Shown piece after piece: positions 3,162 through 19,716 of a DNA stretch of 48,369 bases (position 1 is the first letter of the stretch; every line of letters begins with the position of its first letter). The notes beneath the pieces are model-generated. The model made no database searches. It was not told where the DNA came from and saw only the letters and a list, made by a program, of their open reading frames with translations. The position numbers were made by a program, and so were the translations under genes. Origin of the DNA: Terrimicrobiaceae bacterium (GTDB lineage Bacteria; Verrucomicrobiota; Verrucomicrobiia; Chthoniobacterales; Terrimicrobiaceae); assembly GCA_049317565.1 (NCBI GenBank), contig JBMOIA010000001.1, positions 1 through 48,369 of the forward strand, in the 5' to 3' direction.

Positions 3162-4729
3162 GGCTTGCGGAAAACGCAGTGGACGCAGGCGCCGCCGCCC
3201 TTGGCCGAGATGACGCGGACGGTGCCGCCGAGGAGTTCCGCGCGGTGGCGCATGATTTTCATGCCCATGCCCCCGTGGCCGTTTCCATTACTATGGCCGT
3301 TGCCGCCGTTGTTGGGGTGGGGGAGCGGGGTGGCGGGGAGGCCGTTTCCGTTGTCCGTGACGGTGAGGATGCCCTCGGGGCCGGCGCAGTCGAGGAGGAC
3401 GCGGATTTTCGTGGCGGCGCCGTGCTTGGTGGCGTTCTGGATGGATTCCTGCGCGATGCGGAAGAGGTTCGTGGCGGCGTCCTCGTCGAACGGCGGCAGG
3501 TGGCCCTTGAGGCGGAAGGCGCAGTCGATTTGGAAGAGTGAGGCGGAGTTCGCGGCGAGTTCCTCGAGGGCGATGTCGAGGCCGCCATCCTGAAGGGCGA
3601 GGGGCGCGAGGCCGCGGGAGAGGAGGCGGGTTTGGTGGATGGCCCGGGCGACGGCGGCGGCGGTCTCGGCGAGCTGCAAGGCGAGGGCTGCTTTTTTCAT
3701 CCGGGCCTTCGACATCGCCTCGATGGAGAACCGGATGCCCGCGAGTTCCTGGCAGATTCCGTCGTGGAGGTCGTGGCCGATGCGGCGGTGCTCGCGTTCG
3801 CTGATGGCGACGAGGTCGCGTTCGAGGCGGCGGCGGGTGTCGATTTCCGCATGGAGTTCCTCTGCGGTCCTGCGGAGCATGGCGGTGCGCTGGGCGACGG
3901 TTTCCTCGAGCTCCTCCTTCATGCGGCCGAGCGAGACGAGCGCCTTCTCGCGGTCCGTGACATCGTTGATGAAGCAGAGGATGGAGAGTGGGGAACCGTC
4001 GGAGTCGAGGAGGCTGGAGAGATACCATTCGCCGAAGGAGACCTTGCCGTCGTGGCCGATGAAACGGCTGGTGACAAAGCTGCTCACCTCGCCGCCCGCG
4101 CGGAGGCGGTGGTAAACCTCCTCGAAGCGCCCGCGGTCCTCCGGGTAGAGGAACGAGAGGAGCAGCGAGGCGGTGCGGTCGTCGCCGGGCGGTTGGCTGT
4201 GGCCGAACATTTCCTCGGCCTTGTGGTTCCAGGAGAGGCAGCGTCCCTCGCAGTCGAATTCGACGACGGCGAGGGGGGAATTGTTCGCATGGTGCACGAG
4301 GCGCTGGCTGGCCTCCTCGAGGCGCATGTCCCCATGGTGGTGCGCAGTGGTGTCGCGGATGGTGGCGACGACCGAGGGCGCGCGGCCGGGGAGTTCCATG
4401 CAGGGCGCGGCGCGCATGGAGAAAAACCTGTTCCCGGCGGCGGTGAGCAGTTCGAACTCGCGCTCGAAGGTGCCGCCGAGACGCAGCGTTTCCGCGGTGA
4501 TTTTTTCGAAGAGTGCGCAGACCGGTTCCGGCAGGCCGAGTTCGGCGGGGGTTTTGCCGGGGATGGTGGCGGCCGGGACGCCGAGGACATCCAGAGCGCG
4601 GTTGTTCGCGTAGAGGAAGCGGAGGTCGGCGCCGATTTCGAGGATGGTGTCCGGCGAGGCGTCGGCGAGCGTGCGGAAGTGGAGCAGTGAACCGAATAAA
4701 AAAGATAAAAAATGTTCGGGGATTATCAT
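3158..4729 (-). CDS. PAS-domain sensor histidine kinase (HisKA_3 / NarX-DegS type)
   Basis: ORF of 523 aa. The H-box is EHRRIGHDLHDGICQELAGI, the N-box is IAQESIQNATKHG, and the G-boxes are VTDNGNGL and GMGMKIMRHRAELLGG. There are two PAS-like segments in the N-terminal half. A Gly/Asn/His-rich insert (NNGGNGHSNGNGHGG) sits in the ATPase lid region. Confidence 0.9.
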   Translation of the reverse strand: MIIPEHFLSFLFGSLLHFRTLADASPDTILEIGADLRFLYANNRALDVLGVPAATIPGKTPAELGLPEPVCALFEKITAETLRLGGTFEREFELLTAAGNRFFSMRAAPCMELPGRAPSVVATIRDTTAHHHGDMRLEEASQRLVHHANNSPLAVVEFDCEGRCLSWNHKAEEMFGHSQPPGDDRTASLLLSFLYPEDRGRFEEVYHRLRAGGEVSSFVTSRFIGHDGKVSFGEWYLSSLLDSDGSPLSILCFINDVTDREKALVSLGRMKEELEETVAQRTAMLRRTAEELHAEIDTRRRLERDLVAISEREHRRIGHDLHDGICQELAGIRFSIEAMSKARMKKAALALQLAETAAAVARAIHQTRLLSRGLAPLALQDGGLDIALEELAANSASLFQIDCAFRLKGHLPPFDEDAATNLFRIAQESIQNATKHGAATKIRVLLDCAGPEGILTVTDNGNGLPATPLPHPNNGGNGHSNGNGHGGMGMKIMRHRAELLGGTVRVISAKGGGACVHCVFRKP

Positions 4730-4921: not shown

Positions 4922-5578
4922 TCATGCGGCCGAGGCCTTGAGGGAGCGGAGGCGGACGCGGAGGTTTTCGGCGAAGTTTTCGACGAGTTCGAAGGCGGTC
5001 TGGCGCGTTTCAAATTCGGTTTGCTGCGCGGAGCCGGGGCGCCATTCCTCGGTTTCCGAAACGCGGATGCGCGGGGAGTCGGCGAGGGCGGGCTGGGAGT
5101 CGGCGGCGGAGCCGAGCTCTGCGGCGTCGAGCGGGGGATGGCAAAAGAAGTCGATGCCGCGGGCGAGGCTTTTACGGCGGAGGTAGGTGGCCATGGAGAG
5201 CGCGGAGGGGCCGATGTGGTCGCCGAACAGCGCGAAGAGGGCGCACTGCCGGCCGCGGTTCAGCCACAGCCAGGCGTCCACCCACGCGCGGAAGGCCGGG
5301 GGCACGCCGTCACGGGCGGATGCGGAGACGATGACGACATCCGCGCTGGAGGCGGCCGAGGCGGCCTGGGCGCGGTTGTCGGCCATGCCGAGGAGGCCCA
5401 TGTTCCAGACATTGACATCGAAGGACGGGTCGCCCGGAACCTCGCCGCGGAGGAACTCGCAGGCGCGGAGGGCGCGCGCGGCGGAGACAAGGTTCTCGTA
5501 AACGATGGCGATGCGGAATTTCCTGGCGGGCGGATTCGCGCCGGCGATGCCGGAGCACTGTTCGATGAGGTGGTCCAT
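4922..5578 (-). CDS. hypothetical protein (about 218 aa), alternating beta/alpha-like pattern
   Basis: The track ORF is 4922..5674. I prefer the internal ATG (MDHLIEQCSG...) at 5578 because the upstream 32 aa are Arg/Pro-rich junk. The composition is non-degenerate (FRIAIVYENLVSAARALRACEFL, ADVVIVSASARDG, ALFALFGDH). I did not recognise a family. Confidence 0.55.
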   Translation of the reverse strand: MDHLIEQCSGIAGANPPARKFRIAIVYENLVSAARALRACEFLRGEVPGDPSFDVNVWNMGLLGMADNRAQAASAASSADVVIVSASARDGVPPAFRAWVDAWLWLNRGRQCALFALFGDHIGPSALSMATYLRRKSLARGIDFFCHPPLDAAELGSAADSQPALADSPRIRVSETEEWRPGSAQQTEFETRQTAFELVENFAENLRVRLRSLKASAA

Positions 5579-5774
5579 GGATGGTTGGTCGGTTGGTTTT
5601 GGTTGTGGTGCCCGGTGCGGGCGGCGGCCGGTGTTATGCGCCGCGGGAGCGCGCAGCTCCATGGGGTGAAGCACCCATACGGTCCGGAAGGGCTTTAGCG
5701 GCTGCCGCGCGGGGCGGGTTGGGGTTTTTCCCCCATGGTTTGGCGCAGCGCCGCCGCGCTAACGATGCGTGTGT

Positions 5775-5972
5775 ATGAACCACCAAGAAATGGAAACAGC
5801 CGAACAACTGGAACTCTTCGATATCGTGCCCGACCGGCCGCTGCCGCCGCCGAACCTGCCGTGGCGCGGGCACACGGACCCGCATGTGGAGTGGCTGCGG
5901 CAACAGTCCGAGGACCAGCTCCGCATCCTGGTCGAAATCCTGCAAAACACACCGGGATTCCGCAGGCCATGA
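5775..5972 (+). CDS. small hypothetical protein (65 aa), translationally coupled to cfa
   Basis: Sequence is MNHQEMETAEQLELFDIVPDRPLPPPNLPWRGHTDPHVEWLRQQSEDQLRILVEILQNTPGFRRP. The composition is balanced and the stop TGA overlaps the cfa ATG (ATGA at 5969-5972). No family recognised. Confidence 0.45.
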   Translation: MNHQEMETAEQLELFDIVPDRPLPPPNLPWRGHTDPHVEWLRQQSEDQLRILVEILQNTPGFRRP

Positions 5973-7156
5973 CGGCGGGCGCGGGAACTGCGGAGGGCGC
6001 CATCCGGCCGGCGGCGCGGATTTCGGAAAAATCCCGGCAGCCGAGGGCGGAGCGGATCATCACGGAACTCTTCGCCGAGGCGGACATCGAGATCGGCGGC
6101 GTGCGGCCGTGCGACATCCGGGTGAACGACGCGCGGTTCTTCCGGCGCGTGCTGGCGGACGGCACGCTCGGGTTCGGCGAGTCCTACATGGAGGGCTGGT
6201 GGGATTGCGACGACCTGGAGGAACTGTGCTACCGCGCGATCCGGAGCAAAATCCACGCGCGGTTCCAGCCGAGCCTGCGCGCTCTGGTGGAGGTCTCGCT
6301 CACGCTGTTGCTGAACCTGCAGACGCGCATGGGCGCTCGTGTGGTGGGGCGGCGGCATTACGACCTCGGGAACGATTTTTTCGGCGCAATGCTCGATCCC
6401 TCGATGCAATACTCGTGCGCGTATTTCCACAACACGGCGGACCTCGCCACGGCGCAGGAGTTGAAGATGGAATTGATCTGCCGCAAGCTCGGGCTCTCGC
6501 CCGGCATGCGCGTGCTGGACATCGGGTGCGGCTGGGGCGGCCTCGCGCGCCACATGGCGACGAACCACGGCTGCGAGGTCGTGGGACTCACGATTTCGGC
6601 AGAGCAAAAAAAATACGCGGATGTGCTGTGCGCGGGGCTTCCCGTTGAAATCCGGCTGCAGGACTACCGCGACGCGGATGGGGAGTTCGACCGCATCGCG
6701 AGCGTCGGGATGTTCGAGCATGTGGGGCCCAAGAACCACGGCGCCTACATGCGCGCGGCGCGGCGGCTGCTCAAGGGCAACGGGCTTTTCCTCCTGCACA
6801 CGATCACGGCGAACGAGGCCTCGCCGATGTGCGACCGGTGGATCTCGAAATACATCTTCGCGAATTCCGCGCTGCCCACCGCATCGCGCGTGCTGCAGGC
6901 GGCGGAGGGTCTGTTCGTCGTCGAGGATCTGCACAACCTCGGGCAATACTATGTGCCCACGCTGCGGGCGTGGGAGGCCGGCTTCATGCGGTCGTATGCG
7001 GACTTCCGCTCGCGGTTCGGCGAGGAGTTCGTGCGGATGTGGCGGCTCTACCTGCTGAGCTGCGCGGGAGCGTTCCGCGCCCGGAGCCTGCAGGTGTTCC
7101 AGTTCCTGCTCTCGCCGGAAGGCGTGGAGGGCGGGGAGCCGCTCCGCATCCAGTGA
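5969..7156 (+). CDS. cfa: cyclopropane-fatty-acyl-phospholipid synthase
   Basis: Characteristic blocks are GESYMEGWWDCDDLEELCYR, HYDLGNDFFGAMLDPSMQYSCAYF, VLDIGCGWGGLARHMA (SAM-binding), SVGMFEHVGPKNH, YYVPTLRAWEAGF and MWRLYLLSCAGAFRAR. I chose the start at the internal ATG 5969 (395 aa). The 78 aa upstream in the track ORF look like non-coding GC-rich read-through. Confidence 0.9.
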   Translation: MTAGAGTAEGAIRPAARISEKSRQPRAERIITELFAEADIEIGGVRPCDIRVNDARFFRRVLADGTLGFGESYMEGWWDCDDLEELCYRAIRSKIHARFQPSLRALVEVSLTLLLNLQTRMGARVVGRRHYDLGNDFFGAMLDPSMQYSCAYFHNTADLATAQELKMELICRKLGLSPGMRVLDIGCGWGGLARHMATNHGCEVVGLTISAEQKKYADVLCAGLPVEIRLQDYRDADGEFDRIASVGMFEHVGPKNHGAYMRAARRLLKGNGLFLLHTITANEASPMCDRWISKYIFANSALPTASRVLQAAEGLFVVEDLHNLGQYYVPTLRAWEAGFMRSYADFRSRFGEEFVRMWRLYLLSCAGAFRARSLQVFQFLLSPEGVEGGEPLRIQ

Positions 7157-7222: not shown

Positions 7223-9481
7223 GTGAAAACCAAACCCTCTTTTATAATGCTCCCGGCGATGGCGGCGGCTTTTGCGGCCGTGCTGGCCGGACCGCTCCGC
7301 GCGGCGGAGAAATCGTTCGAAACCCCGTTTGTCCCGCCCGGCGGCGGGCGACTCGGCGGCGCACTTGCGAAAAAGGAATTCGCATTCCGGCTGCCGGAGC
7401 ATGTGCGTTACAGCGGGGGCAGCCGGCTCGCGCTTTCTTGGCGCTCCTCGCCGCTCCTGCTGGACTCTTCGACCCTCACGGCGTCGCTCAACGGGCGGCA
7501 GCTCGGCAGCGCGCGGCTCGGCCACGCTCCGGAGGCCGGTGAGTCGCAGGGCGGTGGATCCCTCGCCGTGGAAATTCCGGACGGCGTGCTGCAACCGGGA
7601 TGGAACCGTATCGCGGTGGAGTGCCTGCTGCAAACGACCCAGGTGCCATGCCGCGATGTGGACAACCCCGCGGCATGGGTGGACCTCGACGAGGCGAGCG
7701 GGGTTGCTGTGGAGTATGAAACGCAGCCGATCTTTCCCGAGCTGCAGCGCTTCCCGCACTCGGTGGCGGAAACGGTGCTGATGGAATTGCCGGAGTTCCG
7801 GGCGTCCGGAGAAGGCGTCCCCGAGCCTGTTGTCTCGATCCTGCTGCCATGGGATGCGGGCGACTCGGAACTCCGGTGTCTGGTGATTGCCGCCGCGCGG
7901 GTGGGACAGACCGGCTACACGCCGCGCGACGCGGTGGGCGTGGGTGACATTTCGGAATTCGCGGCGGTCTCCGCTCAGCGCAACGGCATCCTCATCGGTC
8001 TGCGCGAGGAGTTGTTGGAACTTCCGCTTCCGCCTTCGGCGGCCGGTTCGCTGGAGCGGTTGGGCGATGGCGAGGGACTCGTAGCGGAGGCGATCATGGG
8101 CAAGGACGGGGGGCGTCAGACGCGGTGGGTCGTGGTTTCCGGCGCCGACCCGGCAGGGCTCGAGCGTGCCGCGCTCGCTCTGGGGAATTCCGTGGCGCTG
8201 CGCAACGCGCCATCGAATTCATGGATTGTTTCCGCGGACCCGCAGATTTCGCCGATCGCCGAAAAGCTCGCGCACCCGCCGGTCGGTCCGGTGCGGCTCG
8301 ATACGCTGGACGGGGGCGGTATCGCGATGAAAGGTGTTTTCCGCAACGCCGCGTCGCGCACGGTGCATTTTCCGCCCGGATACGAAACGGTGGGCGGGGG
8401 ATTTTTCGAATTGGATTTCAGCCACGCGGAGAACCTCGCGGGAACCTCGGCGCTCGAGGTGAGGTTGAACGACACGGTGCTCGGGGGCATATCGCTGGAT
8501 GCGGGTAACACGGGCGCGGCCAAGCGGCGCATCGCCATTCCGGCGGGAATTTCCGGGCGCGACCCGTCGTTGCTCGCTGTCTCGAGCTACCTCGACATCG
8601 GCAGCGTGGACTGCACGCACCGGAACAGCGAGCGGGCGTGGCTGGACATCGCGGGCGGATCGTTGCTCGACATCAAATCCTCTCCGCTCCGCATCGATGA
8701 TCTGCGCAAACTCGACAGAATCTGCCTGCGCGACGCGTTCCTGCGGCGCGCGGCCATCGTCGCCCCGGCGGAACCGGGCGGCGATCGCGACGGGATGCTC
8801 AAGTCGCTTGCCATGGACCTCGGCTCGCGCCTCACGCAAATGCCGGTGCTGTGGCCGCAGGTGGCCACCTACAGCGGCATCACTCCGCCGGACGCTGCGC
8901 GGCTTCGCGGGAGGTCGGGAATCGTGCTCGGCTCGGCGGACCAATGGGCGGAGGCGCTCGGCCCGAAAACGCGACTCGTGGTGGAGGAGTCCGCTTCGGA
9001 TTCCGAAAGACTGGTCATGCGCGGCGAGGATGTGCCGAAGGATTCGTTCGATCCCGGGCTGGTCTTCGCGCAACTGCTGCCGTCGCCCTGGTCGGGCGGC
9101 GAGGTGTTCGCTGCAGTGGGAGGGATTTCGGGATATGGCGGTGACAATGCTGTGGCGATGCTCACCGATCCTGGAATTTCCGATCGGCTCGGTGGAACCG
9201 TAGCCGCCTACGACGGCCGGTCGGTGGTCACCTACGATGTGCGCACGATCCAGGAGGCTTCGCTCGCGGAGGAATTCCGCGGGGCGTTTGCGTTCGGAGG
9301 CGGCACCGATCCCGAGCAGCAGGTCATTCAAAAGGCGGAGGCCGGGCTTGCGGCCGCGAACCACAGCGTCTGGGTGCTCTCGGTGGCGATAGCCGTGCTC
9401 GGCGCGCTGTTCGTTTCGCAGCGGTTACTAGTCCGCCGCCGCAAAAAGAACGGCAAACCCAGCGAGGGGAGCGAACTGTGA
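7223..9481 (+). CDS. BcsB-like periplasmic subunit of a polysaccharide synthase (signal peptide, C-terminal TM anchor)
   Basis: 752 aa with a GTG start. The signal peptide is MKTKPSFIMLPAMAAAFAAVLAGPLRA/AEK. Two blocks resemble the BcsB carbohydrate-binding repeats (LALSWRSSPLLLDSSTLTASLNGRQLGSARL and ALEVRLNDTVLGGISLD). The C-terminal TM helix plus basic tail is VWVLSVAIAVLGALFVSQRLLVRRRKK. Size and topology match BcsB/YdaN. Confidence 0.65.
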   Translation: MKTKPSFIMLPAMAAAFAAVLAGPLRAAEKSFETPFVPPGGGRLGGALAKKEFAFRLPEHVRYSGGSRLALSWRSSPLLLDSSTLTASLNGRQLGSARLGHAPEAGESQGGGSLAVEIPDGVLQPGWNRIAVECLLQTTQVPCRDVDNPAAWVDLDEASGVAVEYETQPIFPELQRFPHSVAETVLMELPEFRASGEGVPEPVVSILLPWDAGDSELRCLVIAAARVGQTGYTPRDAVGVGDISEFAAVSAQRNGILIGLREELLELPLPPSAAGSLERLGDGEGLVAEAIMGKDGGRQTRWVVVSGADPAGLERAALALGNSVALRNAPSNSWIVSADPQISPIAEKLAHPPVGPVRLDTLDGGGIAMKGVFRNAASRTVHFPPGYETVGGGFFELDFSHAENLAGTSALEVRLNDTVLGGISLDAGNTGAAKRRIAIPAGISGRDPSLLAVSSYLDIGSVDCTHRNSERAWLDIAGGSLLDIKSSPLRIDDLRKLDRICLRDAFLRRAAIVAPAEPGGDRDGMLKSLAMDLGSRLTQMPVLWPQVATYSGITPPDAARLRGRSGIVLGSADQWAEALGPKTRLVVEESASDSERLVMRGEDVPKDSFDPGLVFAQLLPSPWSGGEVFAAVGGISGYGGDNAVAMLTDPGISDRLGGTVAAYDGRSVVTYDVRTIQEASLAEEFRGAFAFGGGTDPEQQVIQKAEAGLAAANHSVWVLSVAIAVLGALFVSQRLLVRRRKKNGKPSEGSEL

Positions 9482-10680
9482 GGCGCGCTGCGTCGATTGC
9501 AGTGTTGGCGGCGCTTCTGGCCGTCGAGGCGGGCGCCAAAACATTGGTGATCTTCGATACCCCGGCGAAACCGTTTTCGATGGTGGACGAGGTCGCTCCG
9601 GTGGCAATTTTGCTCACGCGGTTCGATCCGGCGCCGTTGCGCAAGGCGGCCGCGGAGATCACGACGCAGGATATCACCGATGCCGACCGCGTGGTTTTGG
9701 TCGGCGTCGCCGGCGTGCCGAAACTTTCCAAGGAAGTCCTCGCCGCGCTCGAGGGCAAGCCGTTGCTCGGCATCGGCGCTGCGGCGTCACTCGCGGCCGG
9801 AGCAAGCGGTGAAAGCAAACCGAAGGCGGTCGCCGGCGGGCATGTGGTGCTGGGGGATTCCGAGTGGGAGGCGAGGATAGATCCATTCTACGCATCGGCG
9901 CCCGCTGGCGCGGAGGCGACGGCGAATGTCGTCCGGGACGGGAAGGCGCAACCGCTTGCGTGGAGCAAGGGCGATCGGTTCGGGTTCGGCGCCTTGCCGG
10001 GTGCCCCGCCGTTGTCGGATATTTTCAGCGACCTGCTGGTGGATTTTTACGGCGCGCCGGGGAAACCCGCCGCGATGTATTTCCTTGTCGAGGATTTCAA
10101 CCCGTCGTCCGGGAGTGCGGCGCTGCGGCGGCTTTCCGATTACTTCGCGCACCTCGGCGTGCCGTTCGCCGTGTCCACTCAGGTGCGGAATGTGCCGCAG
10201 GGGACCGCGATCGAGCCGAGGGAGGAATTCCTCGCGGCGCTGCGCCACGCGCAGTCGCGCGGCGGCGTTGTTCTTTTGCGCGGGGCGGATTCGGCTGCGG
10301 ACATCGAGAAGTTCCGCGCCGACGGCATCGCGCCCGCCGGGTTCGACGATGCCCCCGCGGCCGTGGGCCTTCCGCTCCACACCGGCCGGATTTCCTACAA
10401 GCCATCGCCCGATTCGGAGCCGGAGCCGTTCCCCGCATCCACCGCGCTGCTGCTGCCGGACGGGGCGAAGTTGCTCCCCGCGAATGTGCGCGGGGGCGCG
10501 GATGGCGTGGCGCTCGATGTGGTGGCCGAACGCATCCGCGGGATCGCCTCCATGCGCGGCGGCGTGGCCGGCGTGGTGATCCCCGCCTGGCTGCCATTCC
10601 AATCCATGCGCGACATCGCCGATGCCGCGCGCTCCTCGGGCGTCCCCGTGGCGGAACCCCTGATCCTTTCCCAACAATGA
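9478..10680 (+). CDS. secreted DUF2334/YdaL-like (polysaccharide-deacetylase-type) protein
   Basis: 400 aa. The GTG start overlaps the upstream stop (GTGA). The signal peptide is MRRAASIAVLAALLAVEAGA. The core MYFLVEDFNPSSGSAALRRLSDYFAHLGVPFAVS aligns with AFFRIEDVAPVGDVTALKQLGNTLDSLDVPFTIS of the second copy at 20605-22212. The family assignment is from memory of DUF2334. Confidence 0.5.
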   Translation: MRRAASIAVLAALLAVEAGAKTLVIFDTPAKPFSMVDEVAPVAILLTRFDPAPLRKAAAEITTQDITDADRVVLVGVAGVPKLSKEVLAALEGKPLLGIGAAASLAAGASGESKPKAVAGGHVVLGDSEWEARIDPFYASAPAGAEATANVVRDGKAQPLAWSKGDRFGFGALPGAPPLSDIFSDLLVDFYGAPGKPAAMYFLVEDFNPSSGSAALRRLSDYFAHLGVPFAVSTQVRNVPQGTAIEPREEFLAALRHAQSRGGVVLLRGADSAADIEKFRADGIAPAGFDDAPAAVGLPLHTGRISYKPSPDSEPEPFPASTALLLPDGAKLLPANVRGGADGVALDVVAERIRGIASMRGGVAGVVIPAWLPFQSMRDIADAARSSGVPVAEPLILSQQ

Positions 10681-12281
10681 AAACCATTCCCCTGATCCTC
10701 GCCGCTGCCGCGGCGGCCGCACTGCCCGTTCGCGCGCAATCCGCGGACCCCATCCAAAAATCCATGCAATTTTCCAACGAGGGCCGGCACGGCGAGGCGG
10801 TCCGCATCCTGGAGGAGGCCGCAGCCGCGGAACCTGGCAACGAAGCGCTTTCGTTCCGCCTGGCGACCGCGTTGGTTTTCGAAAGGCGACCCGCTGAAGC
10901 CCGCGCGCGGTTCGAGCAGTTGTCGCGCTCGTGGGATTCCCAAATCGCTTCCATGGCTGCGTCCAGCCTCGCCGCGCTCGACAAGGCGGAAGCGGAGGAA
11001 CGCATTGCCCTCGCAGCCCCTCCGTCCGCCGAACAAATCCGCCGCGAACGCGAATACGCCGAAAGGAAGGCGCGCCTCGAACGCCAGCAGGCGGCCTATG
11101 ACCTCGCGGCATCGGGCAGCGATGCGGAGGCGGTGGCGGCTATCGGGGCGCTTGAAGCGCGCGGCGAGGCCTTGCCCGACATGGTCCGCGCGAAGGCGGC
11201 CGCTCTCGATCGCCTCGGCGACACCGCGGGCGCGGTGGAGGTTTTGCAACGCCTTTGCGAAACGGAAAACCCGGCGCGCGAGACGCGGGCGCAGTTGGCG
11301 GCCTTGCTCCGCAGGGAGGGAGACCACGAGGAGGCGTTCGGGATTTGGCAGGACCTCCGGGACAACCACGGCGACACGGACGAGGGGCGGATGGCCGCGC
11401 GGGAGATCGCGGCACTTGCGCCGCCGCTCAACCTGGAGCGCTGGTCCTGGGGGGAACTCGACCTCTACACCGCCTACCTCTCGCGATACGGGATCGGTGT
11501 TGGCGGCGGGCGGTTGAGGCAGGGGACATTCGTCCCCGGTGCGCGGTGGATCGAGCCGTTTGTCCAAGCCGATTTCACGCTCGATTCGAGCAGCGCGGTG
11601 TCCAACCAAGGGATTGCCACGATCTACAACGAGAACCTCGCCGGCTTCCATGCCGGGGCCCGTATCAGGCCTTTCGCGGACCAGAGCTTCACCCTTTATG
11701 TGCTCGGCGGCGTGCAGAACAACCTGCGCGGCGTGGACCGCTATCCCGGAATCTGGTTTGCGGAATTGGTAACCGGGTTGAACGGGTTTTGGGCCTGGGG
11801 ACCCGGAAAGGAATGGGCGTTCGCCGATCTCGAAACCGAATCGCCCGGCGGGATGCCGCCGTTGCCGCCCGACGGGGTGAATTGGATTCCGCACGCTTGG
11901 GGACCGGTAAGCGCCAGGTTCGATTGGTTCACCGAGGCCGGGTTCGACGCGTCCTACTACACGCGGCTTTCCGATTGCATCGGGTATGTGCAGGCGCGGC
12001 AGGGGTTCCGCCTGCTGCAACTCGGCCGCGCCGGGGCGGTGGACGCCTACGCCCTCGCCAATGCCGCGATGGATACCGGCGGGAGCTACTATGACAACTA
12101 TTTCGAGGGCGGTCCCGGCATGCGTTTCGTCGCGGCTCCGGTGGGCGCTGCGATTTTCACGACGAGCCTGGACTATGTCCTTGGCGCCTACCTCGGGCCG
12201 AATGCCGGCGACTCGCGCGGATCCGCCAGGGCGACCTACTCGGACTTCCGCATCACCGCCTCACTGTCACTTCGCTGGTGA
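10677..12281 (+). CDS. outer-membrane TPR + beta-barrel polysaccharide export protein (NfrA/BcsC/PgaA-like)
   Basis: I chose the internal ATG at 10677 (ATGA overlap with the upstream stop). This gives 534 aa with the signal peptide MKTIPLILAAAAAAALPVRA/QS. The N-terminal half is helical and TPR-like. The C-terminal half is rich in aromatic/Gly alternating strands and ends ...DFRITASLSLRW, a typical outer-membrane barrel terminus. The first 271 aa of the 805-aa track ORF are Arg/Gly junk. Confidence 0.65.
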   Translation: MKTIPLILAAAAAAALPVRAQSADPIQKSMQFSNEGRHGEAVRILEEAAAAEPGNEALSFRLATALVFERRPAEARARFEQLSRSWDSQIASMAASSLAALDKAEAEERIALAAPPSAEQIRREREYAERKARLERQQAAYDLAASGSDAEAVAAIGALEARGEALPDMVRAKAAALDRLGDTAGAVEVLQRLCETENPARETRAQLAALLRREGDHEEAFGIWQDLRDNHGDTDEGRMAAREIAALAPPLNLERWSWGELDLYTAYLSRYGIGVGGGRLRQGTFVPGARWIEPFVQADFTLDSSSAVSNQGIATIYNENLAGFHAGARIRPFADQSFTLYVLGGVQNNLRGVDRYPGIWFAELVTGLNGFWAWGPGKEWAFADLETESPGGMPPLPPDGVNWIPHAWGPVSARFDWFTEAGFDASYYTRLSDCIGYVQARQGFRLLQLGRAGAVDAYALANAAMDTGGSYYDNYFEGGPGMRFVAAPVGAAIFTTSLDYVLGAYLGPNAGDSRGSARATYSDFRITASLSLRW

Positions 12282-14944
12282 ACGCCATGGATACGCTGCA
12301 CGCGGTTTTTCTTGTCTTGGCCTACACGGCGGCCATCGGGTTTTTCGTCTTCGGGGTGGACGATGTGTTTTTTGACATGCAGTTCCTCCGCCATCTCTTG
12401 AAAACACGGCACCGCCGTCCGCTCACTCCGGCCGAATTGGCGCAGGAACCGGAGCGGCTGGTGGCCGTGTTCATCCCGGCGTGGAACGAAGGTGGCGTGG
12501 TCAATAAAATGGCCGACTACGCCGCGCGCACGCTCCTCTACGAGCGCTATGATATTTTTATCGGGGTTTATGCGAACGATGCGGAGACCAACCGCTGCGT
12601 GGACAGTCTGGTCACTTCCTCCGGGCGCATCCACAAGGCGGTTGTGCCGCATGACGGTCCGACCTCGAAGGCGGATTGTCTGAACTGGATTTATGCCGCG
12701 ATGAAGGCTGCGGAAATCCCCGGCCGGCGTGAATACGAAATCATCGCGCTGCACGACGCGGAGGACATCCTGCACCCGCTCACACTCAAGGTTTACAACC
12801 GGCATGTGCCGCGGGAATACGACATGGCTCAACTCCCGGTTCTTCCGCTCGAGCTTCCGCCGCTGACGCACTGGGTCGGAAATTCCTACATCGACGAATT
12901 CAGCGAACTCCATGTGAAGGACATGTTCAGCCGCACGGTGGTGGGTGGTGTGGTCCCGTCCGCCGGTGTCGGAACAGCTTTTTCGCGCCGCGCCATCGAA
13001 CACCTCGCCTCCCTCCGCGGAGACGGGCCGTTCGCGGTGGAAAGCCTCGCCGAGGACTACCTCGTCGGCCTCCAACTCCGCCGCGCGGGCTTCCGTGTGG
13101 GTTTCATCGACAGCAGGGTCGAACGCCGGTTGCCATCGGTCGGTGGCGCCGGGCCGCGCACCGTGTCCGAGCGCATCGCGGTCCGCGAGAGGTTTCCGAC
13201 GCGGTTTTTTGCCGCCGTGAGGCAAAAGACGCGCTGGATCATCGGCACCGCATTCCAAGGATGGGAGCACGGCGGTTGGGAGGGCAGCAGCGCGGTGAAA
13301 TACACGCTCGTCCGTGACCGTCGCGCTCCGGTGGTCCACACGGTCAACGCGGCTGGTTATTGCGTGGTGGCCTACATGCTCGCGGAGTTCGGCGTCCGGC
13401 ACACGCCGCTCTCGAACGCGATTTTCATCAAGCCGCTGATCGGTGCGGACACCATGCTTTGGAATATCGTGCTCGCGGATACCGCGCTGCTGCTCTACCG
13501 CGTGGGGCAAAAGGCCGCATGCGTTGCGGAGGTTTACGGAGCGAAGCAGGCCTTTTTTTCCCTGCCACGCTATCCGGTCTCGAGCTTCATCAACATGGCC
13601 GCCACGCTGTGGGCCTCGGTCCTCTACACGCGCCACAGGGTCTTCAAGAGCCCGCTTGTCTGGGCGAAAACGGCGCACACCTTTCCTGGGACGCGGGAAC
13701 TGGGCGAATTCCACCGGTCGATCGAGGACCTGCTCGTCGAACAAGGCTACGCCACGCACGGCGAGATCGGGAAGCTGTTGGAAAAAAACCACGGCAGGTC
13801 CGCGGCGCGCGCCCTGCTGGACTCCCGGCGCATCGGCGAGGACGACTTCGCGGAAATCTGGTCCCGCCAATCCGGCCTGCAGGTGAAGGCGGTTTCCGCG
13901 GGCACCATCGACCGCGAAATGCTGGCATTGTGGACGGAGGGGATGGCGGTCGAGAACGAAGCGCTGCCGCTTGCCGGGCGGAACGGAAACCTGTGCTCCT
14001 TCGCCTTCGCCGAACCGCCCGACGAGGCGCAGTTGGCGCTGATTTCGGAAACCGTGGGCATGCCCGTGGCGGCGTGCTTGGCGAGGCCATCGAATTTGAA
14101 ATACGCTCGCGATGCGGTGTATCCGCTCCGCGCCTTGCAGAAGGTTGTTTGCAATCCGGTCGCGGACCTCGTTGCGGCGCTTTCCGCGGACCAGCGCGAG
14201 CGTCTTGGCCGCTTTTCCTGCCAACACGGAATCCGCGTGGACGAGGCATTGCTCCGCCTGCGCATGGCCTCGGCGGAACGCGTGAGAAACATGATGGCGG
14301 AATCCTTCCGAGCCCGCCCGTCCGAGATGTCGAACACCACCCCGAGCGTCTCGATCGCGGAAGCGCTTGGCGGATTGTTCTGCGAAGTCCACGGACTTGT
14401 GCCCCTGCACGACGGGACGATTGGAATCGCCGACCCGGTGCACCCCGCGGTGGCCGCGCGGGTGCGGCGCATTCTGAATGGTGCGCTGCAATTTTCTGCC
14501 GACACTCCGGCCGGGCATGCGGCGGCCTTCGGCCGCCTGGCCGAATTGCGGATTCCATCCGGCAGTCTGCTCCGCGGACTCGAGGAAGCCGGGATTATCT
14601 CGGCTGACAACGCACGGCGCGTCGCAAACATGTCCGGTTTCGTCCAGGGTCCCGTGGACCGGTTGCTGATCCAGCTGGGACTCAGCACGCGCCAACAGGT
14701 GTCCAAGGTCCTCCGTGCTTCCAGCGGGCTCGAAGTAGCCGGGTTCGACGATTCGCCATCGGCCCCCGACGGCGGCGGCGTGCTCGCGCCGGGATTTGCC
14801 GAGCGGACCGGCATCCGCATTCACGATGTCGGCCCGGCGGGAGTGACGCTGCGGATCAGTTCGTTGCCCGCCGCGGACGACCTCGCCGAGGTTCGCCGCC
14901 GCTGCGCCGGTGTGCCTCTCCATTTCGAATTTTCCGCTTCATGA
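12278..14944 (+). CDS. nfrB: NfrB-like family-2 glycosyltransferase (polysaccharide synthase) with C-terminal MshEN/T2SSE_N-like modules
   Basis: 888 aa. There is block-for-block similarity to E. coli NfrB as I remember it: FGVDDVFFD, LVAVFIPAWNEGGVVNKMADYAARTLLYERYDIFIGVYANDAET, GPTSKADCLN, LHDAEDILHPLTL, SYIDEFSELHVKD, VVPSAGVGTAFSRRAI, FPTRFFAAVRQKTRWIIGTAFQGW and WAKTAHTFP. Start is GTG 12278 (GTGA overlap) or ATG 12287. Confidence 0.85.
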   Translation: MNAMDTLHAVFLVLAYTAAIGFFVFGVDDVFFDMQFLRHLLKTRHRRPLTPAELAQEPERLVAVFIPAWNEGGVVNKMADYAARTLLYERYDIFIGVYANDAETNRCVDSLVTSSGRIHKAVVPHDGPTSKADCLNWIYAAMKAAEIPGRREYEIIALHDAEDILHPLTLKVYNRHVPREYDMAQLPVLPLELPPLTHWVGNSYIDEFSELHVKDMFSRTVVGGVVPSAGVGTAFSRRAIEHLASLRGDGPFAVESLAEDYLVGLQLRRAGFRVGFIDSRVERRLPSVGGAGPRTVSERIAVRERFPTRFFAAVRQKTRWIIGTAFQGWEHGGWEGSSAVKYTLVRDRRAPVVHTVNAAGYCVVAYMLAEFGVRHTPLSNAIFIKPLIGADTMLWNIVLADTALLLYRVGQKAACVAEVYGAKQAFFSLPRYPVSSFINMAATLWASVLYTRHRVFKSPLVWAKTAHTFPGTRELGEFHRSIEDLLVEQGYATHGEIGKLLEKNHGRSAARALLDSRRIGEDDFAEIWSRQSGLQVKAVSAGTIDREMLALWTEGMAVENEALPLAGRNGNLCSFAFAEPPDEAQLALISETVGMPVAACLARPSNLKYARDAVYPLRALQKVVCNPVADLVAALSADQRERLGRFSCQHGIRVDEALLRLRMASAERVRNMMAESFRARPSEMSNTTPSVSIAEALGGLFCEVHGLVPLHDGTIGIADPVHPAVAARVRRILNGALQFSADTPAGHAAAFGRLAELRIPSGSLLRGLEEAGIISADNARRVANMSGFVQGPVDRLLIQLGLSTRQQVSKVLRASSGLEVAGFDDSPSAPDGGGVLAPGFAERTGIRIHDVGPAGVTLRISSLPAADDLAEVRRRCAGVPLHFEFSAS

Positions 14945-16125
14945 ATACAGCCATTACTGAAAAAAAAACCGTAGCCGTCGTTGTTGGAACCCGTCCCGAG
15001 GCCATCAAGCTCGCGCCGGTGATCCGGGAACTCGGGAAATCCCGTCTTTTGAACCCGCTCACCATTTCCACCTCGCAGCACGGCGAAATGGTGGAACAAA
15101 TTTTCAACAACTTCGGGATCTCCGCCGATGTGGATCTGCATGTCATGCAGCCGCGCCAGAAACTCTGGGACCTCACCTCGGTGCTCTCGCGGGAATTGGG
15201 TGAACTGTTTGCCGCGCGCCCGGTCGCGGCGGTTGTCGTCCAGGGGGACACGACCAGTGCGCTCATCGGCGGACTCGCCGCGTTCTACCACAAGATTCCC
15301 GTGGGTCATGTCGAGGCTGGTTTGCGGTCCCACAACCGCTATTCGCCGTTTCCCGAGGAATTGAACCGGACGCTTCTCGGCAAGCTCGCGGACTGGAATT
15401 TTGCGCCAACGGACCATGCGGCCGAGAAGTTGCGCCGCGAAAATGTGGACGGGGATTCGATCTTCGTTTGCGGCAACACGGTGGTGGACGCGCTGCAGTG
15501 GATGGTTTCCAAACTCCGCAACCGGGAACTTCCCGCCGGCCTCGCGGATGGGCGCCGCAGGCTCGTGCTGGTCACCTGCCACCGGCGCGAGAACCTGGGG
15601 CTGCCGATGCGATCGGTCGCGCTGGCCGTGAAGCACCTCGCAGACTCACATCCCGAGGCGCACTTCATTTTTCCGGTTCATCCGAACCCCGGCGTTCGGG
15701 AATTGGTCATGCCGATTCTTTCGCACCAATCAGGCGTCACGCTGTGCGAGCCGCTGAACTACGAGGAGTTTCTTTCGGTCCTGCAAAGCGCCTACATGGT
15801 GCTATCGGATTCCGGCGGCGTGCAGGAGGAGGCGACCGCGCTTGGCAAGCCGGTGCTCGTTCTGCGCCGCGAAACCGAGCGCCCCGAGGGGGTGGAGGCC
15901 GGAACGCTCCGGCTCGTGGGAACCGATGTGCAGGACATCCTGCGTGAAGGGCATGCGCTGCTCGTCGATGGGGAGCGCCACCGCGCCATGGCGAATGGTT
16001 CGAAGGTTTTCGGCGACGGCCATGCGGCGGAGCGCATCCGTAAAATCCTCGAGCAAAAGATTGCAGGTCCGCGCGGCGTTTTGGAATTCCCGGTTCCGTC
16101 CGCCACCACTGCGCTTTTGCAGTAG
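14941..16125 (+). CDS. wecB: UDP-N-acetylglucosamine 2-epimerase (non-hydrolysing)
   Basis: 394 aa. Motifs are VVVGTRPEAIKLAPVI, VVVQGDTTSAL, GHVEAGLRS, PFPEELNR and LSDSGGVQEEATALGKPVLVLR. The ATG overlaps the nfrB-like stop (ATGA). Confidence 0.9.
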   Translation: MNTAITEKKTVAVVVGTRPEAIKLAPVIRELGKSRLLNPLTISTSQHGEMVEQIFNNFGISADVDLHVMQPRQKLWDLTSVLSRELGELFAARPVAAVVVQGDTTSALIGGLAAFYHKIPVGHVEAGLRSHNRYSPFPEELNRTLLGKLADWNFAPTDHAAEKLRRENVDGDSIFVCGNTVVDALQWMVSKLRNRELPAGLADGRRRLVLVTCHRRENLGLPMRSVALAVKHLADSHPEAHFIFPVHPNPGVRELVMPILSHQSGVTLCEPLNYEEFLSVLQSAYMVLSDSGGVQEEATALGKPVLVLRRETERPEGVEAGTLRLVGTDVQDILREGHALLVDGERHRAMANGSKVFGDGHAAERIRKILEQKIAGPRGVLEFPVPSATTALLQ

Positions 16126-16147: not shown

Positions 16148-17479
16148 TTAGAGGCCGGTGGGGAAGGTCTCCTCGACCTCACCCGCCGTGCATAGCACCG
16201 AGCTTTCGAGCGGTTCGACCGCGCGGGTCGTGTCGATATGGAACACGGCGTCGAACTGTTCAGCCAGGGACGCGCTGAAGTAGTGGCTCCGGCGTTCAGT
16301 CTCGGGCTTGTAAACCACGCCGATGGCCCGCTCGAGCATCGGGCCGCGCAGCATGTCGGCAACAGCCGGGTGCTCGCGGAAATCCAGGTAGAACGCGGGC
16401 ATTTCCGAATGGTGGAATATCGCCTCGTAGCTCCTTGGAAGCGCGGGCCGCATTTCCCGGTGTTCCGCTGGACCGTCCCACTCGGAGGCTGCGGTGACGG
16501 TGCCCGAGTAGGTCGTGAAACCCACCGCGACCACCTCATCGCCGAAGCGCTCGCGGCAGAGTTGTCCGATGTTCAATTCGCCGCGCTGCGCCATCTCGGT
16601 CGCGTTCGCGTTGCCGATATGGGAATTGTGGGCCCAGATGACGATGCGGGATTTGTCGTGCAGGCGGTCAAGGTGGTCCATGAGGGCCAGCAGCGTGTCC
16701 ATCATGTGTCGGTCGCGGAGGTTCCAGGATTCTACATCTCCGCGCAGCATCGTGCGGTAGTATTTCTCCGCATTCGCGACGACGGTGGCGTTTTGCTGCG
16801 CTTGGAAAAAGTCCTCCTCCGCGGCCTCGCCGTCGAGGGCGAGGTAGGATGCGCGGCTGCGCCGCAGTTCCGCCAACGCGCCGACGACCTGGCGTTCGCA
16901 CCCGGCGGAAATGCCTGTGCCGGCCATGAGGCCGTAGCGGCGTGCATCGCCGCCGAAATGGTCGAAGCAGGCGTAACGCTGCATGCAATCGTGCGCCGCG
17001 GTCGGGTCGATGTGCGTCAGGTAATCAACCACCGCTTTCATGGATTCGTTGAGGCTGTAGATATCGAGGCCGTAGATGCCGCGACGCGAGGAGGGGCCGG
17101 TGATCGACGAGTTGTGGTCATGCAACCAGCCGGCGAAGTCGAGCATGTCGCTGTTGCGCCACATCCATTGCGGGAAACGCCGGAAGCCGGAGAGGGCATC
17201 GGAGGCGGTCGCGGGACCATCGAGGCCTTTGACGAATCGGTTCAGGTGCCAGGTATCCGGCCAATCGGCTTCCAAGGCGAGGGCGTGGAAGCCGAGTTCC
17301 GCGAACAGGCGCGCCGTGATCCGCGCGCGTGTTGAATAGAACTCGTGCGTGCCGTGGGTGGCCTCGCCGAGAAGGACGATGCGCGCTCCGGCGCAGCGCT
17401 CGAGGAGTGGATCGAAGTCGGCCGGCGACCCGTTCAGCGGGTGCGCGGCATGGCGTATGGTTTCGGGGTCAGGGTTCAT
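16148..17479 (-). CDS. erythromycin esterase family protein
   Basis: 443 aa. Blocks typical of the erythromycin-esterase/succinoglycan family are RIVLLGEATHGTHEFY, ALALEADWPD, FPQWMWRN and IVIWAHNSHIG. Confidence 0.8.
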   Translation of the reverse strand: MNPDPETIRHAAHPLNGSPADFDPLLERCAGARIVLLGEATHGTHEFYSTRARITARLFAELGFHALALEADWPDTWHLNRFVKGLDGPATASDALSGFRRFPQWMWRNSDMLDFAGWLHDHNSSITGPSSRRGIYGLDIYSLNESMKAVVDYLTHIDPTAAHDCMQRYACFDHFGGDARRYGLMAGTGISAGCERQVVGALAELRRSRASYLALDGEAAEEDFFQAQQNATVVANAEKYYRTMLRGDVESWNLRDRHMMDTLLALMDHLDRLHDKSRIVIWAHNSHIGNANATEMAQRGELNIGQLCRERFGDEVVAVGFTTYSGTVTAASEWDGPAEHREMRPALPRSYEAIFHHSEMPAFYLDFREHPAVADMLRGPMLERAIGVVYKPETERRSHYFSASLAEQFDAVFHIDTTRAVEPLESSVLCTAGEVEETFPTGL

Positions 17480-18146: not shown

Positions 18147-18875
18147 TCAAACAGCGGCTGCGGTTTCGGGTTCCTCCACCTTTGCGAGGTGGCGGCCGAA
18201 CCATTTCACGGCGAGGTCGGCGACTTTTTCCAAGGCCCCCGGCTCCTCGAAGAGGTGCGTGGCACCGGGGACGACGGCCAACCGCCGCGCGCAGCGCAGG
18301 TGGTCGCAGGCCTCCTCGTTCAGTTTCAGGACGGCCTCGTCGTTTCCCCCGACGATAAACAGGGTAGGGGCCTGCACGCGCGAGAGGTGCTCGTAGGCGA
18401 GGTCGGGACGCCCGCCGCGCGAAACGATGGCCGAAATCTCCCCGTTCAGCGCGGCTGCGGCGGCAATTGCAGCGGCTGCGCCTGTGCTGGCCCCGAAGTA
18501 GCCGATCGGGTTGCCGTTTTTGAAAGGGTGCTTTTGCACATAGCGCGTTGCCGCGATGAGGCGGCTGGTGAGGAATCCGATGTCGAAGCGGAAGCGGGCG
18601 TCCCCGGAATCCTCGATCTCCTCGTCTGTGGTCAACAGATCGAGCAGGAGTGTTCCGAATCCCGCCTCCGCGAGTTTCGAGGCGACGAAGCGGTTCCGCC
18701 GGCTATGTCGGCTGCTTCCGCTGCCGTGGGCGAAAATGACAATGCCTGAAGCTTCGGCCGGCATGGTCCAGACGCCCTCGATGTGGGCGGCTCCGGCCGG
18801 GATTTGGACGATCCCGGAGATGCCGTCTTCGGGATCACGCAGGGAATTTTTTTGTTTTTCGGGTGTGTGTCTCAT
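18147..18875 (-). CDS. dienelactone hydrolase / alpha-beta hydrolase family protein
   Basis: 242 aa. Motifs are VIFAHGSGSSRHSRRN, the nucleophile elbow GYFGASTGAAAA, FIVGGNDE and PGATHLFEEPGAL. It lies 5 nt upstream of the PRTase gene. Confidence 0.8.
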   Translation of the reverse strand: MRHTPEKQKNSLRDPEDGISGIVQIPAGAAHIEGVWTMPAEASGIVIFAHGSGSSRHSRRNRFVASKLAEAGFGTLLLDLLTTDEEIEDSGDARFRFDIGFLTSRLIAATRYVQKHPFKNGNPIGYFGASTGAAAAIAAAAALNGEISAIVSRGGRPDLAYEHLSRVQAPTLFIVGGNDEAVLKLNEEACDHLRCARRLAVVPGATHLFEEPGALEKVADLAVKWFGRHLAKVEEPETAAAV

Positions 18876-18967
18876 GGTGGTTTGTTTGGCGGCGGCGTGT
18901 TTCCGCCGCCGGAGTTAATCCACAGTTTTGGGCGACGCGGCGAAATGGGGTGAACTCCCTGCGGGGT

Positions 18968-19264
18968 TCAGGCGGCGAAGCCGAAGCGGTGGCGGACTTC
19001 CGCGTAATCAAGGCCGAGCGACGCGCCGATCAGGGCCGCCGAGTGGCGCTCCGCGGCAATGCGGACCATGCGGTCCGAAGCATGCGGTTCAAGGGCGATC
19101 CCGTCGTGTTTGATTTCCAGGATGCGGGATCCGGAGGCCAGAAGCCGGGCGAGGAAGGTCTCCGCCTCGACCGGATCGTCCGTGTGGTGGACATCGATGC
19201 GTTTGTTGTGCTCCGGGAACACGGTGTAGCTGATGGCGAATTTGGCGAGCATTTGGTGGTTCAT
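18968..19264 (-). CDS. small hypothetical protein (98 aa)
   Basis: This is the C-terminal, non-degenerate part of the 550-aa track ORF, starting at the ATG at 19264. Sequence is MNHQMLAKFAISYTVFPEHNKRIDVHHTDDPVEAETFLARLLASGSRILEIKHDGIALEPHASDRMVRIAAERHSAALIGASLGLDYAEVRHRFGFAA. The rest of that ORF is antisense to the regulator gene. Confidence 0.5.
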   Translation of the reverse strand: MNHQMLAKFAISYTVFPEHNKRIDVHHTDDPVEAETFLARLLASGSRILEIKHDGIALEPHASDRMVRIAAERHSAALIGASLGLDYAEVRHRFGFAA

Positions 19265-19382
19265 TTTTGGAGGGCCAACGAACCCGCATCCGCGGCGGGT
19301 GTCGCCTCGGGTGAACGCCCCATGGTTGTGCAAAGGGCGGCAGGGAATTGTCCCGCCCCGCGCCAGACGGCGCACCACCACG

Positions 19383-19682
19383 ATGAAACAACGCAAACGG
19401 AAAAAACCCGCCCCGGCCCCGCAGCATGGGCACGAATCCCGCGAGGACCGCGCCCGCACGGCGGCCGGAAAAACCGCCAACAGCAAAGTCCGCAGCGAGG
19501 GGCGCGCCCTTGCCGCACTCGCAAGAACAGGCCGGACCATGACCGCCGCAGAGGCGGCCGAGGCGCGTCGCCTTGCGGCGCTCGGATGGAATGCTCCCAT
19601 GCGCAAAACCCGAATTTTGTCGGAACAGCCCCCACACCCGTGCGGGAACCCCGGCAGCAACCCGAAAGGCGGGTCCGATTGA
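19383..19682 (+). CDS. possible small basic protein (99 aa)
   Basis: Internal ATG of the track ORF 19233..19682. Sequence is MKQRKRKKPAPAP...SEGRALAALARTGRTMTAAEAAEARRLAALGWNA.... The A-R-A...MT..E..E.AR.AA..W pattern resembles small KGG/stress-type or phage-type basic proteins. The evidence is weak. Confidence 0.3.
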   Translation: MKQRKRKKPAPAPQHGHESREDRARTAAGKTANSKVRSEGRALAALARTGRTMTAAEAAEARRLAALGWNAPMRKTRILSEQPPHPCGNPGSNPKGGSD

Positions 19683-19716
19683 GGACCGCCGCCGAACAAG
19701 CCACACCAACAATACA

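Follow-up and report, generated by a model that had tools for sequence, protein, structure and literature searches.

The locus described here raises the question of which sugar-polymer machine is encoded where a synthase resembling Escherichia coli NfrB stands beside a BcsB-like protein, a protein derived from the DUF2334 family, a putative outer-membrane export protein and the epimerase WecB. The five genes occupy positions 7223-16125 of a 48,369-nt stretch of DNA, referred to below as the window, from contig JBMOIA010000001.1 of a Terrimicrobiaceae bacterium (GCA_049317565.1). A first-pass annotation had read them as one coupled operon that merges Nfr parts (NfrB, NfrA and WecB) with BcsB-like and DUF2334 parts. 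Our analyses demonstrate that the region is a real, conserved operon for the synthesis and export of a sugar polymer, which is best classed as an architectural variant of the known Nfr/PGR synthase-dependent exopolysaccharide systems. Domain searches bore out the proposed list of five parts (i.e., NfrB-like, BcsB-like, DUF2334-like, TPR/barrel and WecB). The same analyses put in doubt that the synthase is controlled by cyclic di-GMP (c-di-GMP) in the canonical manner, and they suggest that the DUF2334-derived protein is probably no longer an enzyme.

The Operon and Its Conservation in Verrucomicrobiota

The five plus-strand open reading frames (ORFs) of the first-pass annotation were confirmed at their coordinates. 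They are designated genes A to E, in the order of transcription:

7223..9481, plus strand: gene A, BcsB-like periplasmic protein, 752 aa (Pfam BcsB, hydropathy)
9478..10680, plus strand: gene B, degenerate DUF2334-family protein, 400 aa (weak Pfam match, hhalign, AlphaFold2 model)
10677..12281, plus strand: gene C, TPR and beta-barrel protein, predicted to act in outer-membrane export, 534 aa (Pfam TPR, AlphaFold2 model, fold match)
12278..14944, plus strand: gene D, NfrB-like processive glycosyltransferase family 2 (GT2) synthase, 888 aa, probable start ATG 12287 (BLASTP, NCBIfam)
14941..16125, plus strand: gene E, WecB, non-hydrolyzing UDP-GlcNAc 2-epimerase, 394 aa (TIGR00236, Pfam Epimerase_2)

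When the products were searched against domain models, the GT2, MshEN, BcsB and WecB matches passed their cut-offs and TPRs were found; the DUF2334 match was below its cut-off but was rescued by a profile-profile match. The window is GC-rich, with a GC content of 58-68%.

The tetranucleotides expected of four start/stop overlaps are all present (GTGA at 9478, ATGA at 10677, GTGA at 12278 and ATGA at 14941), but the overlap between C and D is probably not real. The homologs of D all begin at a residue matching its M4 (MD/ME...), and a 99%-identical database protein (P0001) has 885 aa. Because of this, the true start of D is probably ATG 12287 rather than the annotated GTG 12278, and with this start the C/D junction would be a 5-nt spacer. 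The same short spacer is found in two relatives (L003 and L005). Each of the four junctions is either an overlap or a spacer of no more than 5 nt. A scan of the window for promoters and terminators was uninformative, as the counts equaled those of shuffled sequence. An Rfam scan for c-di-GMP or other riboswitches returned a single match in the window, a tRNA gene at 45824-45895 on the minus strand.

For the survey of gene neighborhoods, the best 80 of at least 544 NfrB relatives were taken from contigs with one genome per species and classified with our own profiles. The order BcsB-like, DUF2334-like, C and NfrB-like was found in each of the 10 genome loci from Verrucomicrobiota whose flanking DNA was long enough, and the co-occurrence of BcsB and DUF2334 genes with NfrB homologs, which the first-pass annotation had proposed to survey, is thus seen in every one of them; wecB directly followed D in nine. 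Metagenome contigs carried the same four-gene order from 67% down to 42% identity in D, with wecB adjacent, nearby or absent. As related genomes keep this gene order, the genes have not come to lie side by side by chance.

An NfrB-Like Synthase With an Altered MshEN Tail

Protein D is 33% identical to NfrB of E. coli K-12 over 617 aa (E 1e-90), and the sequence blocks by which the first-pass annotation had recognized NfrB do align with the E. coli protein. The best NCBIfam matches of D are all NfrB-type models but lie below the equivalog cut-offs, and D is therefore a member of the NfrB family, not an equivalog. Besides these models, NCBIfam returned only a weak PilB match to the MshEN-like region, and models of BcsA and PgaC gave no match at E <= 0.01. 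The catalytic motifs DxD, (T/A)ED and QxxRW are conserved as LHDAED, LAEDY and VRQKTRW, respectively. In LAEDY, the T is changed to A in the subclade of D, while ED is invariant. D is the sole GT2 of the operon, and neither Pfam nor NCBIfam placed a PilZ domain in it. Its best-named relatives come from Terrimicrobiaceae, Spartobacteria, Chthoniobacterales and other metagenome-assembled genomes (MAGs) of Verrucomicrobiota. Within D, the following parts were delimited:

12455..13384, plus strand: GT2 catalytic domain, approximately aa 60-369 (Pfam Glyco_tranf_2_3, 116.8 bits; Glyco_trans_2_3, 96.6 bits)
13691..14152, plus strand: MshEN-like module 1, aa 472-625 (phmmer against 5HTL; Pfam MshEN at aa 542-617)
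14153..14941, plus strand: MshEN-like modules 2 and 3, aa 626-762 and 763-888 (pairwise hhalign)

The cytoplasmic tail of D is thus longer than that of E. coli NfrB and consists of three MshEN-like modules, which match one another in pairwise hhalign comparisons at 97%, 97% and 91%. The tail keeps the MshEN fold (Pfam MshEN, 33.4 bits; cut-off, 23.1), and phmmer aligned it residue by residue with MshE of Vibrio cholerae (5HTL; E 6.6e-5). This alignment revealed the replacements R9S, L10I, G11E, Q32E, R38S, L39A, G40A, G47R, L54F and L58W, by which the RLG triplet has become SIE in the first motif and SAA in the second. The two 24-residue RLGxx c-di-GMP motifs of a canonical MshEN domain are not present in D. 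Among about 85 aligned NfrB homologs, all members of the Verrucomicrobiota clade had RS[IV]ED in motif 1 and SAP or SAA with a two-residue gap in motif 2; homologs from other groups, with few exceptions, kept the LG dipeptide in both motifs.

Substitution of G11 or G40 in MshE abolishes c-di-GMP binding, and XpsE, which is changed analogously, does not bind c-di-GMP (Wang et al., PMC5013675). In NfrB itself, the substitution G491L abolishes infection by phage N4 (Sellner et al., PMC8669472). Since neither RLG motif, nor its essential glycine, is retained anywhere in the clade, it is doubtful that the synthases of this clade are activated by c-di-GMP in the canonical manner, and the earlier description of D as c-di-GMP-activated through MshEN does not hold up against this alignment. 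The strong conservation of the replacement motif suggests that the tail has retained a function, albeit an altered one. No GGDEF or EAL gene turned up in a Pfam scan of a subset of the ORFs in the window.

The BcsB-Like and DUF2334-Derived Partners

The product of gene A matched Pfam BcsB with 82.1 bits (cut-off, 21). A canonical BcsB encoded by a proteobacterial MAG (L025; 253 bits in Pfam) matched it with a BLASTP E-value of 2e-10 over 446 aa and with 98.8% in hhalign. Hydropathy placed two hydrophobic segments in A, a signal peptide at aa 7-25 and a C-terminal transmembrane anchor at aa 718-736 that is followed by RRRKK. The BcsB-like character of A and the topology proposed for it are both supported by these results. 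A is not paired with a PilZ-containing BcsA cellulose synthase, as the GT2 of this operon is the NfrB-like D.

The product of gene B was more difficult to place. Pfam DUF2334 (PF10096) matched it with 22.6 bits, which is under the gathering cut-off of 26, and the same weak match was found in 23 of 27 members of its family. The 534-543-aa proteins encoded at the same position in two more distant loci (L008 and L009) do pass PF10096, and the family of B matched them with an hhalign E-value of 7.8e-60. The DUF2334-like core predicted for this secreted protein thus fails at the level of the Pfam threshold but stands as profile-profile homology to true DUF2334 proteins. The N-terminus of B is a signal or an anchor. 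The AlphaFold2 model of B (pLDDT 79) contains an N-terminal flavodoxin/GATase1-like domain with matches to HisH (TM-score of about 0.53), followed by a (beta/alpha) barrel whose weak matches to the CE4 deacetylase fold indicate a truncated CE4-like barrel.

The canonical DUF2334 motifs are R[IL]ED[VI], HG[YT]THQ and FHP[FW]. Their counterparts in B are VEDFN, LRGADS and IPAW, in which the histidines of HGxTHQ and FHP are gone, and between the motifs B is shorter than canonical DUF2334 proteins by about 100 residues. Motif loss is graded across the clade, as the protein in L008 still has MHGCGH. The family is small: an HMMER search of 1.84 billion representative proteins returned 302 matches at E <= 0.001 and 32 at E <= 1e-30, and only about 10 of the 302 are full-length short forms of B. 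Because the histidine motifs and the intervening residues have been lost, B is probably non-catalytic and serves as a pseudo-enzyme or scaffold, which speaks against the suggestion that the polymer is partly de-N-acetylated.

We also considered whether YbcH, the accessory protein of the E. coli system, could be the DUF2334 part there. This was rejected, as YbcH belongs to DUF4434 and had no BLASTP match to B. The DUF2334 partner and YbcH are therefore truly distinct accessories, and in the searches that we made no literature on a DUF2334 partner in an Nfr-type system was found.

The Putative Export Protein and WecB

The product of gene C has a signal peptide, and its only Pfam matches are TPRs. 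Its AlphaFold2 model (pLDDT 77) consists of a TPR solenoid (aa 25-245) and a roughly 12-stranded beta-barrel (aa 257-533) that ends in ...SLSLRW, in agreement with the signal peptide, TPR region and barrel that had been predicted. The best whole-chain fold match is E. coli BcsC (9b8a; E 5e-8). The name NfrA, which the first-pass annotation had given to the exporter, does not fit: C did not match Pfam NfrA_C, a model that E. coli NfrA matches with 227.6 bits, and barrel profiles built for C and for NfrA did not find each other in HMMER. Only at the level of hhalign did the C barrel family match the NfrA C-terminal family (96.4%, E 1.3e-9 over 170 columns). A cross-match between full-length C and NfrA in jackhmmer was rejected as evidence of homology, as it ran through the TPRs, and barrel-only profiles were used instead. 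By these comparisons, C appears as a remote, shortened relative of NfrA and not as its ortholog. A sequence search of the PDB returned no structure of NfrB, DUF2334 or NfrA; only MshE, BcsB and BcsC fragments were found.

The last gene was correctly recognized as wecB. Its product scored 430.4 bits against TIGR00236, above the equivalog cut-off of 210.15, and 346 bits against Pfam Epimerase_2. The gene overlaps the 3' end of D. In two Granulicella genomes (Acidobacteriota), an NfrB-like GT2 and WecB are encoded by one uninterrupted ORF (L051, 9968-13342; L078, 9182-13363), and this fusion independently supports UDP-N-acetylmannosamine (UDP-ManNAc) as the donor. In E. coli, NfrB, NfrA and WecB have been linked genetically to a ManNAc-based glycan (PMC8669469, PMC8669472). 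The product of D would likewise be a ManNAc-containing polymer, as judged from its family and its neighbor.

Accessory Kits of NfrB-Type Synthases

Among the loci surveyed, 44 (mostly from Proteobacteria) contained an NfrA-type barrel as in the E. coli-type kit, and YbcH was present in 29 of them. Other loci combined the parts differently. Gene C and NfrB occurred with a canonical BcsB in two delta/proteobacterial MAGs, a canonical DUF2334 (146-167 bits) lay beside NfrB in Myxococcota and a Ramlibacter, and C, NfrB and WecB were found together in Acidobacteriota and Gemmatimonadota. The C-type barrel was accompanied by BcsB and/or DUF2334 in 14 of 22 loci; the other eight were mostly truncated contigs or Acidobacteriota and Gemmatimonadota loci with C, NfrB and WecB alone. 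Both barrel models were matched only in L013 and L028, where the NfrA-type match was elsewhere in the locus. The two accessory kits, i.e., NfrA with YbcH and the short TPR-barrel with BcsB and/or DUF2334, are essentially exclusive.

Comparison With Known Systems

NfrB, NfrA, YbcH and WecB have been defined in E. coli as the system behind the glycan receptor of phage N4, and linkage to wecB is frequent (Junkermeier and Hengge, PMC8669469; Sellner et al., PMC8669472). The operon described here resembles the E. coli system in its homologous GT2, which has the same catalytic motifs and the same layout of transmembrane segment, glycosyltransferase domain, further transmembrane segments and cytoplasmic MshEN region, in its dependence on or linkage to WecB, and in a TPR and barrel exporter whose barrel is remotely related to NfrA_C. 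It differs in that a BcsB-like subunit is present, while E. coli has none, in that a DUF2334-derived protein takes the place of YbcH (DUF4434), in that the exporter has 534 instead of 990 aa, and in that the synthase has three MshEN-like modules with replaced RLG triplets and wecB lies inside the operon.

A closer parts list is found in the PGR locus (pgrA-G) of Acinetobacter baumannii, described in 2025, which encodes the GT2 PgrC, the BcsB homolog PgrD, PgrE, the WecB PgrF and the NfrA-like porin PgrG (PMC12507263). PgrC is 16-17% identical to NfrB, PgrA is a degenerate protein like diguanylate cyclases, and PgrE resembles YbcH and the C-terminus of PgaB; phage adsorption is lost in pgrD and pgrF mutants, which identifies the locus genetically as a phage receptor pathway (PMC12507263). 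At the domain level, which was compared by description only, the two systems share a synthase, BcsB, WecB, a porin and a periplasmic accessory protein, and a ManNAc-containing surface glycan is predicted for both. They are distinguished by PgrE, which is not a DUF2334 protein, and by the separate degenerate PgrA of A. baumannii. In Achromobacter xylosoxidans, the 2021 report describes nfrA, nfrB and wecB clustered with genes for a BcsB homolog and for periplasmic O-acetyltransferases (PMC8669472). That cluster thus likewise brings nfrA, nfrB and wecB together with a BcsB homolog, but it adds O-acetyltransferase genes, and DUF2334 is not mentioned in the text that describes it.

Two systems of monoderm bacteria also have some of these parts. 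YdaL of Bacillus subtilis belongs to DUF2334, and the polymer made by Listeria Pss is built on a ManNAc backbone. In Listeria pssA-E, the BcsB-like PssD serves a non-cellulose GT2 that is nearer to IcaA/PgaC than to NfrB (PMC4125290). Both pssA-E (PMC4125290) and B. subtilis ydaJKLMN (PMC13274460) are like our operon in that a GT2 works with a BcsB-like partner outside cellulose synthesis. Unlike it, they have no outer-membrane exporter, and they possess a separate degenerate GGDEF receptor (PssE and YdaK, respectively) and a GH8 hydrolase, neither of which was found in the operon or in the flanking genes scanned with Pfam. With the Bcs cellulose synthase, the operon shares an inner-membrane GT2, a C-terminally anchored BcsB and a TPR and barrel exporter, of which BcsC is the best fold match. 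Here, however, the synthase is of the NfrB type and without PilZ, the barrel has about 12 instead of 16 strands and a gene for UDP-ManNAc supply is part of the operon.

The searched literature contained no identical five-gene architecture, no work on NfrB in Verrucomicrobia and no report of altered MshEN motifs. The novelty that had been claimed for the operon is thus kept for the exact five-gene set with its DUF2334-derived partner but not for its core, as an Nfr-like synthase with BcsB, WecB and a porin has already been published and validated genetically.

Proposed Mechanism and Alternative Explanations

We consider it probable that the operon encodes an NfrB-family synthase-dependent exopolysaccharide machine in an accessory configuration typical of Verrucomicrobiota, which would work in five steps. 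WecB, whose family membership is clear, would convert UDP-GlcNAc to UDP-ManNAc. The NfrB-like GT2 of the inner membrane would polymerize a ManNAc-containing chain and, with its single-pass BcsB-like partner, move the chain across the inner membrane as BcsA and BcsB do. B, in the periplasm, would most likely be a non-catalytic glycan-binding or scaffolding subunit, a role suggested by its parallel with the role proposed for E. coli YbcH and by the likeness of PgrE to the C-terminus of PgaB, which binds poly-N-acetylglucosamine (PNAG). C, given the fold of its model, would export the polymer through the outer membrane. Because the RLG motifs of the three-module MshEN-like tail are replaced, control would probably not involve canonical c-di-GMP binding; the tail may instead respond to a different ligand or to a partner, or the PAS kinase and LuxR-type regulator encoded nearby may act on transcription.

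Several observations weigh against this mechanism or parts of it. D scores below the NfrB equivalog cut-offs (396.6 bits against 1170 for NF008411 and 436 bits against 537 for NF012033), and one Verrucomicrobiota locus (L018), which does contain DUF2334, C and NfrB, lacks a neighboring BcsB gene. Known polysaccharide porins are 16-18-strand barrels, and the barrel of C, with about 12 strands, is smaller. The term pseudo-enzyme is used for B on account of lost histidines that the family conserves, not of DUF2334 catalytic residues established by experiment. A canonical DUF2334 gene that lies 4.4 kb downstream (20542-22209, plus strand; 127 bits), with HGTTHQ and FHW intact, could act in trans. 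As the RS[IV]ED replacement is itself strongly conserved, another mode of binding is possible, and the loss of binding is judged from the alignment.

It is nevertheless unlikely that c-di-GMP activates D via MshEN as in E. coli NfrB and that B partly de-N-acetylates a ManNAc polymer. Such a system would agree with the retained MshEN fold (33.4 bits in Pfam; phmmer against 5HTL, E 6.6e-5) and with hydrophobic motif positions that are kept (L10I, L25I, L29, L54F and Q61), as well as with the membership of B in the DUF2334 family, its place among CE4-like folds and the HGCGH of its longer relative in L008. These features have to be set against the replacement of both RLG triplets, including glycines that are essential in MshE, and against the failure of the analogously changed XpsE to bind c-di-GMP (PMC5013675). 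B, furthermore, has neither HGxTHQ nor FHP and is missing about 100 aa, and no GGDEF or EAL protein turned up in the scanned subset of window ORFs.

The probable product of the NfrB-family machine, a ManNAc-containing chain, must also be weighed against a different polymer, cellulose-like or PNAG-like, with WecB serving another pathway. The donor specificity of a GT2 is not fixed by its sequence alone, BcsB is classically a cellulose synthase subunit, and two loci (L009 and L015) have no wecB within 10 kb. We nonetheless regard this as quite improbable, given that NCBIfam gave D only NfrB-type and weak PilB matches and no BcsA or PgaC model at E <= 0.01, that wecB overlaps the D gene, is adjacent to it in nine of 10 clade loci and is fused to it in Granulicella, and that BcsB-like partners serve non-cellulose synthases in Listeria (PssD; PMC4125290) and A. 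baumannii (PgrD; PMC12507263). That the five genes are mere neighbors and no functional unit is hardly credible: the uninformative promoter and terminator scans would allow it, but the order is kept across divergent Verrucomicrobiota at 41-67% identity in D, and the genes overlap or are separated by no more than 5 nt at all four junctions.

A bolder proposal, which we find possible but somewhat doubtful, is that the Verrucomicrobiota branch of NfrB has abandoned canonical c-di-GMP sensing, with a tripled MshEN-like tail carrying RS[IV]ED and SAP that would respond to another ligand or partner, and has turned a DUF2334 deacetylase into a non-catalytic subunit that works with BcsB. If true, synthase-dependent glycan export would have a fourth accessory solution in this branch. 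NfrB-type synthases, a class of exopolysaccharide synthases recognized only recently, are accompanied by at least two accessory kits that exclude each other. The Verrucomicrobiota branch therein provides a natural experiment on what BcsB contributes to a non-cellulose synthase and on what role MshEN plays once its c-di-GMP motifs are gone. Verrucomicrobiota are abundant but poorly cultured bacteria of soil and freshwater, and a surface glycan conserved among them could play a part in how they aggregate and how phages adsorb to them. The findings extend a known theme and do not overturn current understanding; of most interest is that the c-di-GMP motifs are replaced across the clade and that the DUF2334 subunit is degenerate.

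Neighboring Genes

Upstream of the operon, the following genes were identified:

2478-3161, minus strand: LuxR-type response regulator (Pfam)
3158-4729, minus strand: PAS histidine kinase (Pfam)
4922-5674, minus strand: 250-aa protein without a Pfam match, divergent to the operon
5735..7156, plus strand: CMAS-family S-adenosylmethionine-dependent methyltransferase (Pfam CMAS, 276 bits), 67 bp upstream of gene A

The LuxR-type regulator, the PAS kinase and the 250-aa protein also flank the operon in L003 and L005, and these divergent genes are candidate regulators of the operon. The PAS kinase/LuxR pair is adjoined by a gene for a fused CheB methylesterase-CheR methyltransferase-PAS protein (3-2477, minus strand), which runs off the start of the window. 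The CMAS methyltransferase and the 250-aa protein hold their places in the closest relatives only (L003 and L005/L013), where the methyltransferase has 393-394 aa and a small ORF in front. The methyltransferase was consequently rejected as a core member of the operon, and it is possible that it is an additional upstream member.

Downstream, a convergent gene of the erythromycin-esterase family (16148-17479, minus strand) ends about 22 bp from the stop of wecB, and no terminator-like hairpin was detected between the two genes. Positions 18863-24057 on the plus strand contain a gene for a 546-aa regulator with REC and LuxR-type domains (18863-20503), the canonical DUF2334 gene (20542-22209) and glmS (22219-24057), which may form a second module linked to UDP-GlcNAc, 4.4 kb beyond wecB. 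A second DUF2334 gene is likewise present about 9 kb downstream in L007 and L022. On the minus strand at 41231-44128, a Wzc-like gene (Wzz, GNVR and AAA_31; 41231-43375) adjoins a Wza-like gene (Poly_export and SLBB; 43400-44128), a pair that identifies a further system of polysaccharide export within the window, separate and of the Wzy type. Finally, two large genes on the minus strand at 30268-36104 together resemble AddAB; one encodes a UvrD-type helicase that includes a PD-(D/E)XK nuclease domain, and the other encodes a further PD-(D/E)XK protein.

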